Translations under genes and position numbers: made by a program
Shown: one piece after another, positions 43,014 through 49,980 of the stretch
Layout: each line of letters begins with the position of its first letter
How positions within the stretch are numbered: position 1 is the stretch's first letter
The notes under the pieces: model-generated
The model's database searches: none
What the model was told of the DNA's origin: nothing
The model's input: only the letters and a program-made list of their open reading frames with translations
NCBI GenBank assembly: GCA_046290225.1
Contig: JBKAGE010000057.1
Coordinates: 1-63,659, forward strand
DNA length: 63,659 nt
Source: Bradymonadia bacterium
Lineage (GTDB): Bacteria > Myxococcota_A > Bradymonadia > UBA7976 > UBA1532
Direction: 5' to 3'

Positions 43014-44210
43014 CTACTCCACCGCCACGATCACGCCAGCACCCACGGTGCGGCTGCCCTCTCTCAGGGCGAAGCGGCTGCCCACCTCGAGACCCACCGG
43101 GCGGCGAAGCTCGAAGTCCAGCGTGGCCCGATCCCCAGGGTTGATCCGACCAGACTCACCGCTCGAAGTGTCCGCCACCGACAGGATGGTGCCAGTGACG
43201 TCCGTGGTGCCGAAGTAGAACTGCGGCTGGTAGCCTACAGCGAAGGGCTTGGTGCGGCCCCCCTCTTTGGCAGAGAGCGCGTAGAACTCCGCGCGCCCCT
43301 TGGCGTGAGGCTTCACCGAGCCTCGGGCGGCGAGCATCTGGCCTCGGGCCACCTCGTCGCGACCAAGCCCGCGGAGCAGCAGCCCCACGTTCATGCCCGC
43401 CTCCACCTGAGTCACGTTCCGGCGGAACGCCTGCGTGCCGGTGATGACCACCTTGCGCAGAGGATCGTCCGGATCAGTGAGCCCGACGATCTCCACCTCG
43501 TCGCCCACACGGGCGATGCCTCGGCTGACGCGGCCAGTGACCACCGTGCCTCGACCGGAGATGGTCATGACATCTTCGATGGGCATCATGAAGGCCCCCT
43601 CGATGTCACGGACCGGATCAGGGATGTGGCTGTCGAGGGCCTCGACCAGAGCATCGATACATGCCAGGGCCTCGGCACCGTGATCGCCCGACTGCACCGC
43701 CTCGAGGGCCTTCAGGGCCGAGCCCTTGATCATGGGGCTGCCACCAAAGCCGTGCATCTCCAACAGCTCGGCGGTCTCCAGCTCCACGAGCTCGAGCAGC
43801 TCCGGATCGGAGATGTCGACCTTGTTGATGAACACAACCACGTGGCTCACACCCACCTGGCGGGCGAGAAGTACGTGCTCCCGGGTCTGGTCCTGAGGCC
43901 CCTGAGAGCCATCGACGAGCAAGATCGCACCGTCCATCTGAGCGGCGCCGGTGATCATGTTCTTGATGTAGTCCGCGTGGCCAGGGCAGTCGATGTGGGC
44001 ATAGTGACGCCCCTCGGAGACATACTCCACATGGGTGGCGTTGATGGTGATGCCCCGAGCCTTCTCTTCTGGCGCTCGGTCAATTTGATCGAATGCCACC
44101 GCTGCACCGCCATGGCGGACCGCCTGCACTGCAGTGATCGCTGCAGTGAGGGTGGTCTTGCCGTGATCGACGTGACCGATGGTACCGACGTTGACATGGA
44201 TGCGCTTCAT
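43014..44210 (-). CDS. tuf: Divergent elongation factor Tu paralogue
   Basis: [39 protein letters not shown] and GSAL motifs, with all three domains present. AAAGGA RBS before ATG 44210. Not in a str or tRNA operon context. Confidence 0.92.
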
Positions 44211-44448
44211 GGCGGCTTCCTTTCTCTGATCCCACACTGAGGGATCTCAGATGGCCGGTTGGGTTCGAGTCGTGCAGCCGGCCGCTGCAGGTTGGAAGCG
44301 TATCCACCATTGGATACACCTCTGAAACTGTCTTTATATAGATGTGACTATCGCGTGCCATCGACTGATGGTGCGCGAGCCAGATGATGGATGCCATCTC
44401 TCATCTGGTGACTTCAGGGCCTCGACACGGGGTCGAGATCGAGGCCAG

Positions 44449-44488
44449 AAAATGAAAAACCCGCCGTCGGTCAAGCCGAGGGCGGGTT
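44449..44488 (-). terminator. Intrinsic terminator (attenuator) in the tuf leader
   Basis: Minus-strand RNA reads AACCCGCC-C-UCGG-CUUGA-CCGA-C-GGCGGGUU followed by UUUCAUUUU. Confidence 0.85.
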
Positions 44489-44515
44489 CGTCAGAATCCT
44501 GATTTTATAAGGATT

Positions 44516-44635
44516 CTAGCCGAGTCCACCCCCCTCGGGGTCGAGCAACAAGTCGCTCGACGACAACAACGACACTGACAGCAACTGCGAAGCGCAGAGG
44601 CACTGGTCGACAAGGGTGGAGAAGCGGCGGTACAT
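44516..44635 (-). CDS. Putative 39-aa leader peptide MYRRFSTLVDQCLCASQLLSVSLLSSSDLLLDPEGGGLG
   Basis: Lies between the promoter and the terminator, with AAGGTG 9 nt upstream of the ATG. Its last codons carry the antiterminator strand. Confidence 0.65.
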   Translation of the reverse strand: MYRRFSTLVDQCLCASQLLSVSLLSSSDLLLDPEGGGLG

Positions 44636-44669
44636 GTTCTGGCACACCTTTTTCGAGTGAACAGTGAGG

Positions 44670-44698
44670 ACTGTAATCACATGCACTGAGTGCGTCAA
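44670..44698 (-). promoter_or_regulatory. Sigma70 promoter of the leader-tuf transcript
   Basis: TTGACG-17 nt-TACAGT on the minus strand. Confidence 0.7.
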
Positions 44699-45513: not shown

Positions 45514-45744
45514 GGGCGTTCCCTTCGGCGACCGGGGCTGTGACATCACGGGGATTCACAGGCCTCCGGAGGCAGACACAAGCGTCTTAGGCTAATGCTG
45601 GTGAGTGCTGAGTGCAAACCCCAGTGGTTTTTCTTGGTGGGCAGATGACGTTCAGTGTGGTCTCAAGAAGGGGGAGCGCTTACACTATCGTTCATTCTGG
45701 TTGATGCAAAATTACGCATATGCACGGCGCATGATGGAGGCCCG

Positions 45745-48700
45745 ATGTCCCAGTTTCGTACACGTAAACTGCCTTTGGGGCGTTTGCTCGGTTCAGCATT
45801 GCTCTTGAGCGCTGGTGTTGCTGGTGCGAGCACTGGCTATCATCACTGTGCCATCAGCGACACCGGCACGTTGAAGTGTTGGGGCTACAATGGCTATGGC
45901 AACCTCGGCACGGGTGATGACACCACCATCGGTGATGGTCCAGGTGAAGTGGCGGGCCTCGCCGAGGTCAACCTCGGCACCGGGCGCACCGCGCAGCAGG
46001 TGGTGCACGGCAACCATCACACCTGTGTGTTGCTCGACGACGCTTCAGTGAAATGCTTTGGCCGCAGCACTTACGGGACCATTGGGCAGGGCAACCACAA
46101 CACCATCGGTGATCATCCATCGGAGATGGGCGACGGCCTGCCCACCATTGACTTGGGCACCGGCCGCACCGCTGTTCATCTCACCGCCGGGCTCGAGTTC
46201 AATTGTGCCATCCTCGACGATGGTGGGGTGAAGTGTTGGGGTCGTAATGTCGATGGTGCTCTGGGCCGTGGCGACGATCTCAGCATCGGCGATCACGTCG
46301 GAGAGATGGGCGATGCGCTGCCATATGTCGACTTGGGGACCGGCAGAACTGCGGTGCAAATGTCGTCGGGCTACTATCACACCTGCGCATTGCTTGATGA
46401 CGCCTCGGTGAAGTGCTGGGGCCAGAATGGCTTTGGTCAGCTCGGCACCGGAGACACCAACAGTCGAGGTGATTCGCCCAACGAGATGGGTGACAACCTG
46501 CTGCCCGTCGATCTGGGCACAGGGCGCACCGCTGTTCAGGTGAGCGTGGGGCTCTATCATGCCTGTGCTGTGCTCGATGATGGCAAGGTCAAATGTTGGG
46601 GTCACAACAGCTATGGTCAGCTTGGCCAAGGCAACACGACCCGGCGCGGTGACAATGCCGGTGAGATGGGTGACGCCCTTGCGTATGCCGAAATCGGGAC
46701 AGGGCGCACCGTTGTTCAGCTCGTCTCTGGCAACTACCACAACTGCGCCATACTCGATGATGCCTCGGTGAAGTGCTGGGGCTTCAACACGCCTGGTAAC
46801 CTCGGCTACGAAGATGCTGATCACCGTGGCGACGGGTCCAATGAGATGGGCGACAACTTGCCGGTGGTGAACCTCGGCACTGGCCGCACCGCGAGCATGC
46901 TCGGCGCGGGCTATCACAGCCAGTGTGCGGCTCTGGACAATGGCGAGGTGAAGTGCTGGGGCAACAACAGCTATGGCAACCTCGGCTATGGCTACACCAG
47001 TCACGTGGGCAACGCAGCCGGCCACATGGGTGACAACCTCGCCGTGGTGCCGTTGAACTTCACGGCGGTGTCCATCGCCAACGCCAACCTGGCTGCTGTA
47101 TGCCCAGACGGCGACGATGATGGTGTCTGCGATGAGAGCGACAACTGCCCAGTGACAGCGAATGCTGATCAGGCGGATGGCGACGGCGATGGCCTCGGCG
47201 ACGTCTGCGATGCCTGCCCTGCGGGCCAGGCCGATGACGACGGCGATGATGTCTGCGATGACGTCGACAACTGCCCCACGGTGGCCAACCCGAACCAGAC
47301 CGATGACAACGGTGATGGCTATGGCGACGCCTGTGTGAGCCTTGCCGCTGACATCGACCCTACAGCCGTGCTCGGCGCGGGGGTGGTCATCGGCGATGAC
47401 GCCGTGGTGGGTGCGTACAGCAACATCGGTGACGGTGCCACGGTTCGCGGCACAGTGGGCTCGAGCGTCGTCATCGGTGCCGGCAGCACCGTCTCTGACG
47501 GCTGCAACGTGGCCAACAGCGCTCGCATCGGCGCCAACACGGGGCTCGGCGTCGACTGCACGGTGGGGATCCTCGCCGTCATCGGAGACAACGTCAGCGT
47601 CGGCGTCCGTGGCCAGCTGGGCAGCAAGGCCAACATCGGCAATGGCTCGGTGCTCAACGACGATGTCAGCGTGGGTATCCTCGCCCAGGTGGGTGAGAGC
47701 AGCGTGTTGTCGAATGGCGTGCAGATCGGCAACAACGCCCGAGTGGGGGCCCGCACCGCCATGGGCACCAACGCTCGACTCAACGGCAACGCCGTGGTCG
47801 GTGACGATCTCATCCTCGGGGCCAACAGCATCATCGGTGAGAACGCCGTGGTGGGCCATCGAGCCAACATCGACGCTGACAGCACTGTGGGCCCCTATGT
47901 GACTGTGGGCGATGACTTCACCATGGCCAATGAGTCAGAGATGGCCGCCGGCGCCAGTGCCGGCGACAACGTGAGCCTCGCCAGTGGCGTTGAAGTTCGC
48001 GGTGAGCTCGGCCATCGGGTGGTGCTGGGCCACAACGCCTTCGTGGGCAACCAGAGCAGCCTCGGTGACGACACCACCCTCGGCAGCGACTCCGCCCTGG
48101 GCATCTTCGTGAGCATTGGGGCCCGGTGCACCATCGGCAACGGCACTGCGATCTTTGACGGCGCCCAGATCGGCGACGACGGCACCATCGGCGACGAGAG
48201 CACCATCTTGTTCCGGGCCAACCTCGGCGCCAACGCCGACATCGGCGATCGCTGCATCGTCGACGAGCAGATCGACGCCGGTGACAACTTCACCGTGGGC
48301 AACGACAGCCGGCTGTGGCCCCGAAGCATCTACGGCAACAACGTCACCATCGGTGAGCGGGTGCTCATCCGCGACAGCGGCACTTTCGGCAACGGGGTGA
48401 CCATCGAAGATGACGTGATCATCTTCCCTGAGACCACCATCGGCGAAGACAGCACTGTGCGGGCGGGCATCAACATCGGCGTGGCCGATTGCCCCACGCG
48501 GGTGTGCGGACAGGTCACTGTGGGCGGCTGCAGTGACATCAGCGCCGATCTGAGCCCTGCTGCCGAGATCGAAGGCGGCTGTCTGGGGAACACGCCTGAG
48601 GGCGCCGCGGTGAACTGTCAGGCCATCGCCGACAGCGGTGGGGTCGACGGCGCCTACTGGCTCGACCCTGATGGCGACGGCGCCAGCGAGCCGTTCCAGG

Positions 48701-49980
48701 TGTGGTGTGAGATGGACATCGACGGCCTCGCCTATGCGGTGCTCCATCACGACGTCTACGCCAACGCCCGCACCGCCAGCAACGCGCCGAGCGCTGATGC
48801 CGGGTGGAGCATCGACTTCAGCGACGGCACCGATCTTTCGATCCTGCCCTTCAGCGACTTCTACTTCGAGCTGCCCGGCATCTACAGCAAGGCATTCAAC
48901 GAGGTCACCGCCCATGGCAGCGGTAGCCGGTTCAGCATCCGGAACTTCTTCGGCGCCCGGAACCAGAACGGCTGGACCTGCGATACCGAGAACCATTACG
49001 CCGGCAACTGTGATTTCACGACCCACGCCGACACGCGTCACTGGGGTTTGTGGGAGAGCAACACCGCGTGTTGCATCGGCGCCTCTGGTGGCGGTTACTG
49101 GTTCTATTCCATCAGCGCCAGCCTCGGCACCGAGAACTATGGCATCTGCAGTGACGGTTACCCCCTGGGCGCGAATTACGTGGGCAGTCAGGATGGGTGT
49201 GATGCGGGACTGTCCGCCCCTGCAGATGACGACGTGCAGGTCTACAAGCTCGCCGTGCGGTTGCTCGACCTCACCCAGGCGTTGCCCCAGGATGGCTTGA
49301 CCCCCGAGAGCGCGGGTGACTCGTGCAAGGCTCTGCTCGACGATGGCCAGAGCACTGGTGATGGCCTCTACTGGATCGACGTCGATGGTGATGGGGGCTT
49401 CGAGCCGATCCGCGTCTGGTGCGACATGACCACCGAGGGCGGCGGCTGGATCGTGCTTCACGACGATCTGTACCTCTACGCCCGCAACCCTCGAAACGAC
49501 CCCTCTGCCGACTCTGACTGGAGCATTGACTACCGGTCCGCTGGCTCGCCTCTGCTCAACTACGCCATCACCGACTTCCACTTCGAGGTGGACAACGGCC
49601 CGGCGAAGCTCTTCGAAGATGTGGTGGCCTTCAACACCAACAACCGTATGACGCCTCGGCAGCTGTTCTACGGAGATCACAGCCAGAGCTGGCAGTGCAA
49701 CACCGACACGGGTGCGGGGGGCTGCTATTTCACGACTCAGACCGACAACCGTCACTGGGGCGTCTGGGAGTACACCACGGGATGCTGTCTCGGTGGGGGC
49801 ATCGGCGGTTTCTGGTTCTACTCCAACCAGCCTTCACAGGGAGAAGCCCAGAACTACGGCATCTGTGGGGGCGGTTACCCCAACGGCGTGCTCGCCGCAA
49901 ACGTGAGTGGTTGCAACGGTGGAGTCAATTACACCGCGACTGCCAATGGCCAGCGAGGCTACGTATTGCGCATTCGCTAA
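45745..49980 (+). CDS. Large secreted protein: seven RCC1-like repeats, TSP type-3 repeats, a long hexapeptide (left-handed beta-helix) region and two fibrinogen-like (CDM...GGW) domains
   Basis: Signal peptide; seven KC[WF]G..LG repeats; DNCP..AN..Q.D.DGDG.GD.C repeats; [IV]G.... hexads; YW[LI]D.DG.G......VWC[ED]M twice. GGAGG RBS. Confidence 0.85.
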   Translation: MSQFRTRKLPLGRLLGSALLLSAGVAGASTGYHHCAISDTGTLKCWGYNGYGNLGTGDDTTIGDGPGEVAGLAEVNLGTGRTAQQVVHGNHHTCVLLDDASVKCFGRSTYGTIGQGNHNTIGDHPSEMGDGLPTIDLGTGRTAVHLTAGLEFNCAILDDGGVKCWGRNVDGALGRGDDLSIGDHVGEMGDALPYVDLGTGRTAVQMSSGYYHTCALLDDASVKCWGQNGFGQLGTGDTNSRGDSPNEMGDNLLPVDLGTGRTAVQVSVGLYHACAVLDDGKVKCWGHNSYGQLGQGNTTRRGDNAGEMGDALAYAEIGTGRTVVQLVSGNYHNCAILDDASVKCWGFNTPGNLGYEDADHRGDGSNEMGDNLPVVNLGTGRTASMLGAGYHSQCAALDNGEVKCWGNNSYGNLGYGYTSHVGNAAGHMGDNLAVVPLNFTAVSIANANLAAVCPDGDDDGVCDESDNCPVTANADQADGDGDGLGDVCDACPAGQADDDGDDVCDDVDNCPTVANPNQTDDNGDGYGDACVSLAADIDPTAVLGAGVVIGDDAVVGAYSNIGDGATVRGTVGSSVVIGAGSTVSDGCNVANSARIGANTGLGVDCTVGILAVIGDNVSVGVRGQLGSKANIGNGSVLNDDVSVGILAQVGESSVLSNGVQIGNNARVGARTAMGTNARLNGNAVVGDDLILGANSIIGENAVVGHRANIDADSTVGPYVTVGDDFTMANESEMAAGASAGDNVSLASGVEVRGELGHRVVLGHNAFVGNQSSLGDDTTLGSDSALGIFVSIGARCTIGNGTAIFDGAQIGDDGTIGDESTILFRANLGANADIGDRCIVDEQIDAGDNFTVGNDSRLWPRSIYGNNVTIGERVLIRDSGTFGNGVTIEDDVIIFPETTIGEDSTVRAGINIGVADCPTRVCGQVTVGGCSDISADLSPAAEIEGGCLGNTPEGAAVNCQAIADSGGVDGAYWLDPDGDGASEPFQVWCEMDIDGLAYAVLHHDVYANARTASNAPSADAGWSIDFSDGTDLSILPFSDFYFELPGIYSKAFNEVTAHGSGSRFSIRNFFGARNQNGWTCDTENHYAGNCDFTTHADTRHWGLWESNTACCIGASGGGYWFYSISASLGTENYGICSDGYPLGANYVGSQDGCDAGLSAPADDDVQVYKLAVRLLDLTQALPQDGLTPESAGDSCKALLDDGQSTGDGLYWIDVDGDGGFEPIRVWCDMTTEGGGWIVLHDDLYLYARNPRNDPSADSDWSIDYRSAGSPLLNYAITDFHFEVDNGPAKLFEDVVAFNTNNRMTPRQLFYGDHSQSWQCNTDTGAGGCYFTTQTDNRHWGVWEYTTGCCLGGGIGGFWFYSNQPSQGEAQNYGICGGGYPNGVLAANVSGCNGGVNYTATANGQRGYVLRIR

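Follow-up and report, generated by a model that had tools for sequence, protein, structure and literature searches.

In actinobacteria the whiB7/wblC genes are preceded by an upstream open reading frame (uORF), an antiterminator and a Rho-independent terminator and, according to the accessible text of two reports (10.1101/2023.06.02.543512; PMC7157823), slow translation results in read-through. The region upstream of the tuf paralogue described here possesses the same set of elements, one enriched amino acid and a predicted output in translation stress which, as with tuf3, includes a spare EF-Tu. In whiB7/wblC the switch acts on a transcription factor which in turn activates tuf3. The present switch is attached to tuf itself, has a leader rich in Ser where theirs is rich in Ala, and resides in a host outside the actinobacteria. 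A likeness to whiB7/wblC with direct wiring to tuf had been proposed in the initial annotation of this DNA. Leader-peptide attenuators also control amino-acid operons and pheST, the leaders being trpL, hisL, thrL, ilvL and pheM. With these the tuf region shares a four-segment 1:2 / 2:3 / 3:4 logic, runs of sensing codons and a stop codon 20–40 nt before the terminator. It differs in that the cargo is an elongation factor (tRNA genes at the sister loci) rather than biosynthetic enzymes or a synthetase, that the sensing codons cannot correspond to the cargo as they usually do, and that the leaders of its relatives are mostly leaderless in appearance.

On the side of the gene product the comparison is with EF-Tu3 (tuf3) of Streptomyces, a divergent and stress-induced spare EF-Tu in the accessible parts of PMC12309360 and PMC7157823. 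The trn operon of Anabaena is a long tRNA array induced by translational stress, with promoter repeats and a presumed repressor (PMC8421152). There too silent spare translation parts come on when translation is impaired, and the EF-Tu clade described below often ends tRNA arrays; the available text of PMC8421152 contains no attenuation, terminator, leader or EF-Tu. Attenuators predicted in rpsL leaders, with a terminator and antiterminator before rpsL-rpsG-fusA-tufA (PMC2965389), differ in controlling the housekeeping str operon, and the available text mentions neither a leader ORF nor a paralogue. The open-licence PMC and bioRxiv literature yielded no attenuator on a tuf paralogue and no account of this EF-Tu clade; subscription papers, theses and supplements (e.g. 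the attenuator tables of PMC2965389) could list it.

Elements of the leader region and their predicted folds

The window, the whole stretch of DNA analysed, comprises 63,659 nucleotides from a Bradymonadia bacterium (contig JBKAGE010000057.1). The features associated with the tuf paralogue, together with related loci elsewhere in the same genome, are given in Table 1.

Table 1. Features of the tuf paralogue locus (window coordinates) and spare-tRNA switch loci of the same genome (contig and approximate position)
Feature	Position	Strand	Basis
Sigma70-type promoter-like site, -35 TTGACG / 17 nt / -10 TACAGT	44670..44698	-	9/12 consensus matches
Leader SD-like sequence, AAGGTG at 44650-44645	44645..44652	-	sequence
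Leader ORF, 39 codons, 10 Leu and 7 Ser	44516..44635	-	ORF reading
Protector segment (region 1), codons 2-10, predicted partner of the antiterminator without a ribosome	44608..44628	-	fold prediction
Internal leader hairpin, 9 bp, -12.1 kcal/mol	44540..44561	-	fold prediction
Antiterminator (region 2), codons 33-36	44528..44538	-	pairing and masking folds
Stop-overlapping hairpin, starts within stop codon, -7.5 kcal/mol	44493..44517	-	matching stem in Ala/Gly/Thr tRNA-cluster switch
Intrinsic terminator (regions 3:4), stem 44488-44458 (-20.6), U-rich tail to 44449	44449..44488	-	fold
Long spacer, hairpins 44446-44418 and 44408-44380	44211..44448	-	sequence/fold
Divergent EF-Tu paralogue, 398 aa, ATG 44210, SD 44223-44216	43014..44210	-	HMM, trees, residues
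Spare-tRNA switch loci	C20 ~1226, C37 ~79067, C42 ~93501, C79 ~73132	-	read from sequence
Spare-tRNA switch locus	C77 ~152519	+	read from sequence

The promoter, leader ORF, stop-overlapping hairpin and U-tailed terminator of the initial annotation were all recovered, though the promoter-like site alone is at chance level (1 found against 0.8 expected in shuffles); its -35 box lies 63 nt 5' of the leader ATG. The five TTG codons of the leader are codons 18, 23, 24, 29 and 30, and the peptide gave no Pfam match. The terminator stem was missed by the automatic terminator scan because of its bulge and internal loop, and the leader-terminator region folds with z = -4.8. Rfam covariance models revealed no leader, riboswitch or T-box match in the window (best 17 bits against a gathering score of 55) and, in 10 related loci, tRNAs only.

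The antiterminator was likewise as first described, its pairing with the terminator 5' arm (44538-44528 : 44487-44476) comprising 11 bp and one bulge (-19.7 kcal/mol); the alternative local hairpin, CCGAG/CUCGG, is present and weak (-6.3). The pairing surpassed 300 shuffles at p=0.007 and that of all 27 other leaders with the window's arm, yet an equally strong upstream complement occurs in 6.4% of the genome's 766 terminator-like hairpins, so that the pairing alone is only moderately rare. In the ribosome-free fold the antiterminator is predicted to pair with codons 2-10 (P about 0.88), a protector segment overlooked in the initial annotation which completes the 1:2 / 2:3 / 3:4 layout. The terminator lies between promoter and gene, the antiterminator overlaps the 3' end of the leader, and the ORF is so placed that a ribosome near its end would mask the antiterminator. 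Mutual exclusion of antiterminator and terminator is indicated by the pairing and by the leader-swap control, yet the antiterminator is unfavoured at full-length equilibrium.

With no ribosome on the leader, region 1 would sequester the antiterminator and the completed RNA would favour termination. A ribosome delayed at codons 1-30 would leave the antiterminator free to capture the emerging terminator 5' arm, giving read-through, while one at codons 31-39 would mask the antiterminator and termination would follow. Folding was carried out with the ribosome as a 29-nt mask and the RNA ending before the terminator 3' arm: in the window the arm was captured with P 0.7-0.9 when the ribosome stood at codons 1-30, falling to 0-0.2 at codons 31-39, and the same early-high/late-low step is clear in most of 21 relatives and weak in L119, L136 and L162. 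At full-length equilibrium the terminator prevails almost wherever the ribosome is placed, in each of the 22 loci. The window then gives read-through solely when the ribosome stalls near codons 8-10 (codons 8-17 if the upstream RNA is masked) and at none of the TTG codons, and at later stalls it would have to be kinetic. The original proposal that an early stall permits read-through is supported by the masking folds for codons 1-30; at equilibrium TTG stalls still terminate. In ribosome-free window RNA, before the 3' arm is made, the arm is captured too (P 0.78), which renders the protector effect model-dependent.

The terminator-to-tuf gap of 249 nt is the longest among 28 loci, the others having 29-149 nt. 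The spacer contains an AT-rich patch, its strongest internal promoter match (44448-44211) is only 7/12, and its length leaves room for a non-consensus internal promoter. A further uORF may be present at 44310-44080 (minus strand), with a good SD-like site and overlapping the tuf start in another frame. A 272-nt low-depth DNA contig of 97% identity spans 44336-44607; of its eight differences four are listed, none of these in the antiterminator or terminator, and it is too thin to count. Elsewhere in the window (45655-49980, plus strand) is specified a 1441-aa protein with RCC1-like repeats, thrombospondin-3, a long hexapeptide beta-helix and fibrinogen-C-like parts.

The divergent EF-Tu paralogue and its clade

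The downstream gene does specify an EF-Tu paralogue, as initially annotated: its product exceeds the TIGR00485 cut-off (527.1 vs 522.4) and is 56% identical to the genome's housekeeping EF-Tu, the gene for which lies on contig C78 after the usual Thr-Tyr-Gly-Thr tRNAs. In two quick, midpoint-rooted trees the paralogue clade was separate from housekeeping EF-Tus (5 rows vs 100, support 100; 26 vs 30, support 99). Of 401 genomes from the phylum to which the window belongs, 16 carried a clade-specific motif, the window's own genome among them; the motif was present also in at least 120 metagenome stretches and in 15 viral contigs, nine of which exceed 190 kb. The named carriers include Myxococcota, Acidobacteriota, Archangium and Albitalea records, and also jumbo phages. 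Genome-contig searches returned mostly housekeeping tuf loci (3/80 in the paralogue clade), and the clade was not found in 17 other sampled genomes of the same family or in another 250 from the class of Albitalea.

Residues are numbered as in E. coli EF-Tu, taken from L262. The G1 motif, T61, H66, H84, N135/K136/D138, E215, F261, G275 and A375 are unchanged in 122/122 clade proteins, N273 in 118, and G257 in 98/122 and in the window protein; the catalytic and most aminoacyl-pocket residues are thus invariant and the GTPase core of the paralogue is intact. Typical substitutions of the clade are E259Q (108/122), M260A, F218 to V/H/M, R333G (122/122), Y160Q/H, D109Q and D266 to P or other residues, and the N-terminal extension is missing. 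Y160 and R333 are residues of EF-Tu drug sites. To judge from its sequence, the paralogue could presumably stand in for a blocked EF-Tu. Independence from EF-Ts, considered on account of changes at D109, M112 and M349-M351, found no support in the accessible text of PMC9529903.

Orthology with Streptomyces Tuf3 was also rejected, for two tuf3-like proteins, identified as such by a motif, branch apart from the 26-row clade with support 99 in the quick tree. Tuf3 keeps the N-terminal extension, which the paralogue clade lacks, and its gene is activated by WblC. In both tuf3-like loci (L269, L270) a 33-codon uORF rich in Ala begins immediately behind a -10-like box, 194-205 nt upstream of the gene, and after it comes a long GC hairpin with no U-tract; the start site of tuf3 lies about 195 nt upstream of the gene. 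This arrangement suggests that tuf3 itself may be uORF-controlled. The tuf of a Streptomyces plasmid record (L263, NZ_CP109451.1) groups with E. coli EF-Tu, away from the actinobacterial ones, and was ruled out as a tuf3 on that ground.

Conservation upstream of the clade and sister switches on spare tRNA genes

The same leader architecture was looked for upstream of orthologues, as the initial annotation had advised. In all 140 clade loci were read. When duplicates and loci with less than 380 nt upstream had been set aside 87 remained; with L240 (285 nt) these comprise 38 without a tRNA in the 1.3 kb upstream and 50 with one. A joint rule (leader, antiterminator and terminator), the thresholds of which were fixed after the loci had been seen, was satisfied by 21/38 tRNA-less loci, the other 17 failing, and by 0/50 tRNA-adjacent ones; among the controls it was satisfied by 0/98 housekeeping tuf genes and 4/250 genes of the window's own genome. 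The 21 loci have leaders of 24-40 codons and a distance of 21-38 nt from stop codon to terminator arm (29 nt in the window). In 28/38 tRNA-less loci a strict terminator was present no more than 300 nt from tuf, and in eight relatives the terminator-to-tuf gap is only 29-60 nt.

There is a tendency for each antiterminator to fit the arm of its own terminator. The mean pairing of the 5' arm with the 60 nt upstream was -15.4, against -11.8 for shuffled sequences and -13.3 for the leaders of other loci (Wilcoxon p 2e-5 and 0.006; n=28); with the stretch further upstream it averaged only -8.9. Individually the pairing reached p<=0.05 in 14/28 loci, while the other 14 do not beat shuffles. Loci with divergent arms (L143, L146, L148, L163 and the window) have retained a fitting partner, and in a DNA alignment of three sequences the terminator alone aligned. 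TTG[AC]C occurs 33-43 nt 5' of the leader ATG in 22/38 tRNA-less loci (shuffle mean 0.85) and 3/50 tRNA-adjacent ones, a spacing which implies that the leaders of most relatives begin at or near the first base of the transcript; that of the window has an SD instead. The loci cannot be counted as independent cases, the 28 promoter-led leaders forming 13 groups, and the leader peptides share almost nothing beyond an M-[R/F]-[R/F/L] start.

Among the viral members, the strict scan of the region 1.3-2.7 kb upstream in 14 loci revealed no leader-terminator unit; array heads may lie further out. In the phage-type loci L111, L112, L114-L116, L128, L129, L131 and L188 a conserved GC-rich hairpin, followed by a purine-rich stretch and no U-tract, is situated ~90-40 nt 5' of tuf and is perhaps a processing or stability signal.

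Five spare-tRNA loci of the window's own genome also carry a leader, antiterminator and terminator, and serve Arg/Lys/Val/Ile, Leu/Ser/Tyr/Thr, Asp/Glu/Phe/Gln, Ala/Gly/Thr and Trp clusters. Residues cognate to the leader's own cluster number 20/34, 21/34, 17/31, 24/58 and 2/25 (WW), and the true assignment of leaders to clusters ranked first of 120 permutations; for one leader there were two candidates to choose from, and another was chosen by its SD. The stop-to-arm distance is 23-30 nt in these loci and 29 in the tuf switch, and the stop-hairpin-terminator segment of tuf aligns with the Ala/Gly/Thr and Arg/Lys/Val/Ile switches at scores reached by 0 and 1 of 300 shuffles. By these sequence likenesses the tuf switch appears to belong to an own-genome family for spare translation parts (five tRNA loci and tuf) rather than to be a stand-alone device. 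In the same genome a tandem-Asn leader and strong terminator precede a gene start at C82 ~227845 (minus), and a His-rich leader another at C41 ~86574 (plus); the genes look asparagine-synthase-like and hisG-like, respectively.

Similar units occur in other genomes. The related genomes G203 and G175 possess 35-tRNA arrays ending in this EF-Tu paralogue (L278 = G203:C14; L279 = G175:C1), headed by leaders of 100 and 108 codons with all 20 amino acids, an antiterminator and a terminator; these heads were found by eye, having been overlooked by the strict scan. In the family member G023 a Leu-only cluster (L282, G023:C39) has a leader with a Leu run before a terminator and a Pro-only cluster (L281, G023:C49) a leader with a Pro-rich end before a terminator; its third spare cluster has no switch within the 543 nt examined. 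No switch unit was found at the housekeeping tRNA clusters of three family genomes (0/6), and no spare clusters with switches among seven stretches examined in G030 and G309.

The proposed signal and the alternative explanations

Conservation in the clade, the sister switches and the ribosome-masking folds leave the ribosome-dependent attenuator of the initial annotation well supported, and a ribosome-controlled attenuator on the spare EF-Tu is highly probable. We infer translation of the leader, termination in vivo and the identity of the signal; the features that bear on translation are the SD-like site, the promoter spacing, the TCN frame bias and the match of sister leaders to their cargo. 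EF-Tu inhibition, which the initial annotation had proposed as one cause of stalling, may act as the signal. The Leu/TTG codons to which it had also pointed did not survive comparison. Leu makes up 9.6% of the 28 leaders against a background of 9.3-9.8% and reaches at least 20% in 1/13 groups, and TTG is not conserved, accounting for 15/88 Leu codons, five of them from the window; Leu/TTG sensing as a principle of the family was rejected on both grounds. Ser constitutes 20% of the 917 codons in the 28 leaders against 5% in the genome, and at least 15% in 8/13 groups. TCG and TCA predominate among its codons, which lie in frame and frequently form runs of 5-8 Ser; the rare TCA makes up 24% of leader Ser codons against 5% genome-wide. 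TCN triplets are distributed over the three frames as 164/90/25, frame 0 being best in 8/13 groups and frame 1 in 4/13. The window leader, 19/38 of whose residues are Leu, Ser, Tyr or Thr (p=1.8e-4), scores only with the Leu/Ser/Tyr/Thr set. Two relatives, L241 and L246, have Thr/Ala-rich leaders, and the accessible text of PMC6692046 holds no Ser-specific prediction. With EF-Tu as cargo a codon-to-cargo match is not definable, and the strongest sign that codon content matters for the signal comes from the tRNA switches of the own genome. An attenuator with a Ser-biased (here also Leu) aminoacyl-tRNA signal is the likely fuller reading: the spare EF-Tu would be made only when slow delivery of aminoacyl-tRNA delays the leader ribosome, Ser codons (here also Leu) being the likeliest site of the delay.

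This reading overlaps with one in which the switch is, as in whiB7, a sensor of translation stress in general and is opened by any slowing of the ribosome; the attenuator mechanism is common to both, and the signal alone distinguishes them. The Ser/Leu bias would then be inherited from a tRNA-cluster switch or represent C/U-rich RNA for the protector. Such a sensor would suit an EF-Tu that serves all tRNAs, leader peptides that are almost unalike past their first residues, and the Thr/Ala-rich leaders; the tuf3-like leaders are Ala-rich, as is the whiB7 uORF, which nonetheless answers antibiotics and many amino acids (accessible text of 10.1101/2023.06.02.543512). It does not fit the placing of TCN in the leader frame, the Ser runs or the excess of TCA, nor the leader content of the own genome, which tracks cargo, and we hold it possible though on balance improbable. 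It is very unlikely that the terminator acts constitutively at the end of a transcript for a small RNA or small protein (or of read-through from pssA), with tuf silent or transcribed from the spacer: although the terminator dominates the equilibrium folds, the spacer is long with its AT-rich patch and equally strong complements precede some genomic hairpins, the geometry is fixed in the 21/38 loci, the gap is short in eight relatives, the internal promoter match never exceeds 7/12, the peptide is not conserved and the sister switches are codon-matched.

Another explanation, unlikely in our view, concerns a shielded EF-Tu: the switch would sense loss of Ser-tRNA to EF-Tu-dependent tRNase toxins, or domain-2 antibiotics, and yield a factor on which these could not dock. 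The clade is changed at E259, F218, M260, R333, Y160 and D266, and jumbo phages carry it beside tRNA arrays. According to the available text of PMC5737660, the toxin CdiA-CT(NC101) makes contact with EF-Tu at Glu260 and Asp267 (Met numbering), and tRNA-Ser is one of several tRNAs that it cleaves; change of two contact residues of a toxin that cuts tRNA-Ser offers a lead as to why a spare EF-Tu might answer Ser. GE2270A and pulvomycin bind domain II (accessible text of PMC11085428; domain II site also PMC4307249), and Tuf3 is reported as GE2270A-resistant (PMC12309360, in part). Against this, F261, E215, G275 and A375 are the same in every clade protein and G257 in most of them and the window protein, and CdiA-CT(NC101) also cuts Asp, Glu and Asn tRNAs, in which the leaders are not rich. 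A wider proposal makes the EF-Tu clade the core of a mobile translation-rescue kit of myxobacteria-like cells and jumbo phages, whose test genes, read by the ribosome, would activate spare tRNAs according to amino-acid class and, via Ser runs, an EF-Tu with domain 2 rebuilt against EF-Tu-hijacking tRNase toxins and elfamycin-type drugs; this we consider quite doubtful.

EF-Tu is usually taken as a constitutive housekeeping factor, and Tuf3, the sole stress paralogue that has been studied, is assigned to the control of a transcription factor. The EF-Tu clade described here is independent, and its gating appears to come straight from the ribosome, via the same switch as that of spare tRNAs. The predicted uORF of tuf3, hitherto overlooked, could explain the reported induction of tuf3 under stringent conditions, and the tuf switch offers a way to test why spare tRNAs and EF-Tu occur together in some bacteria and jumbo phages.
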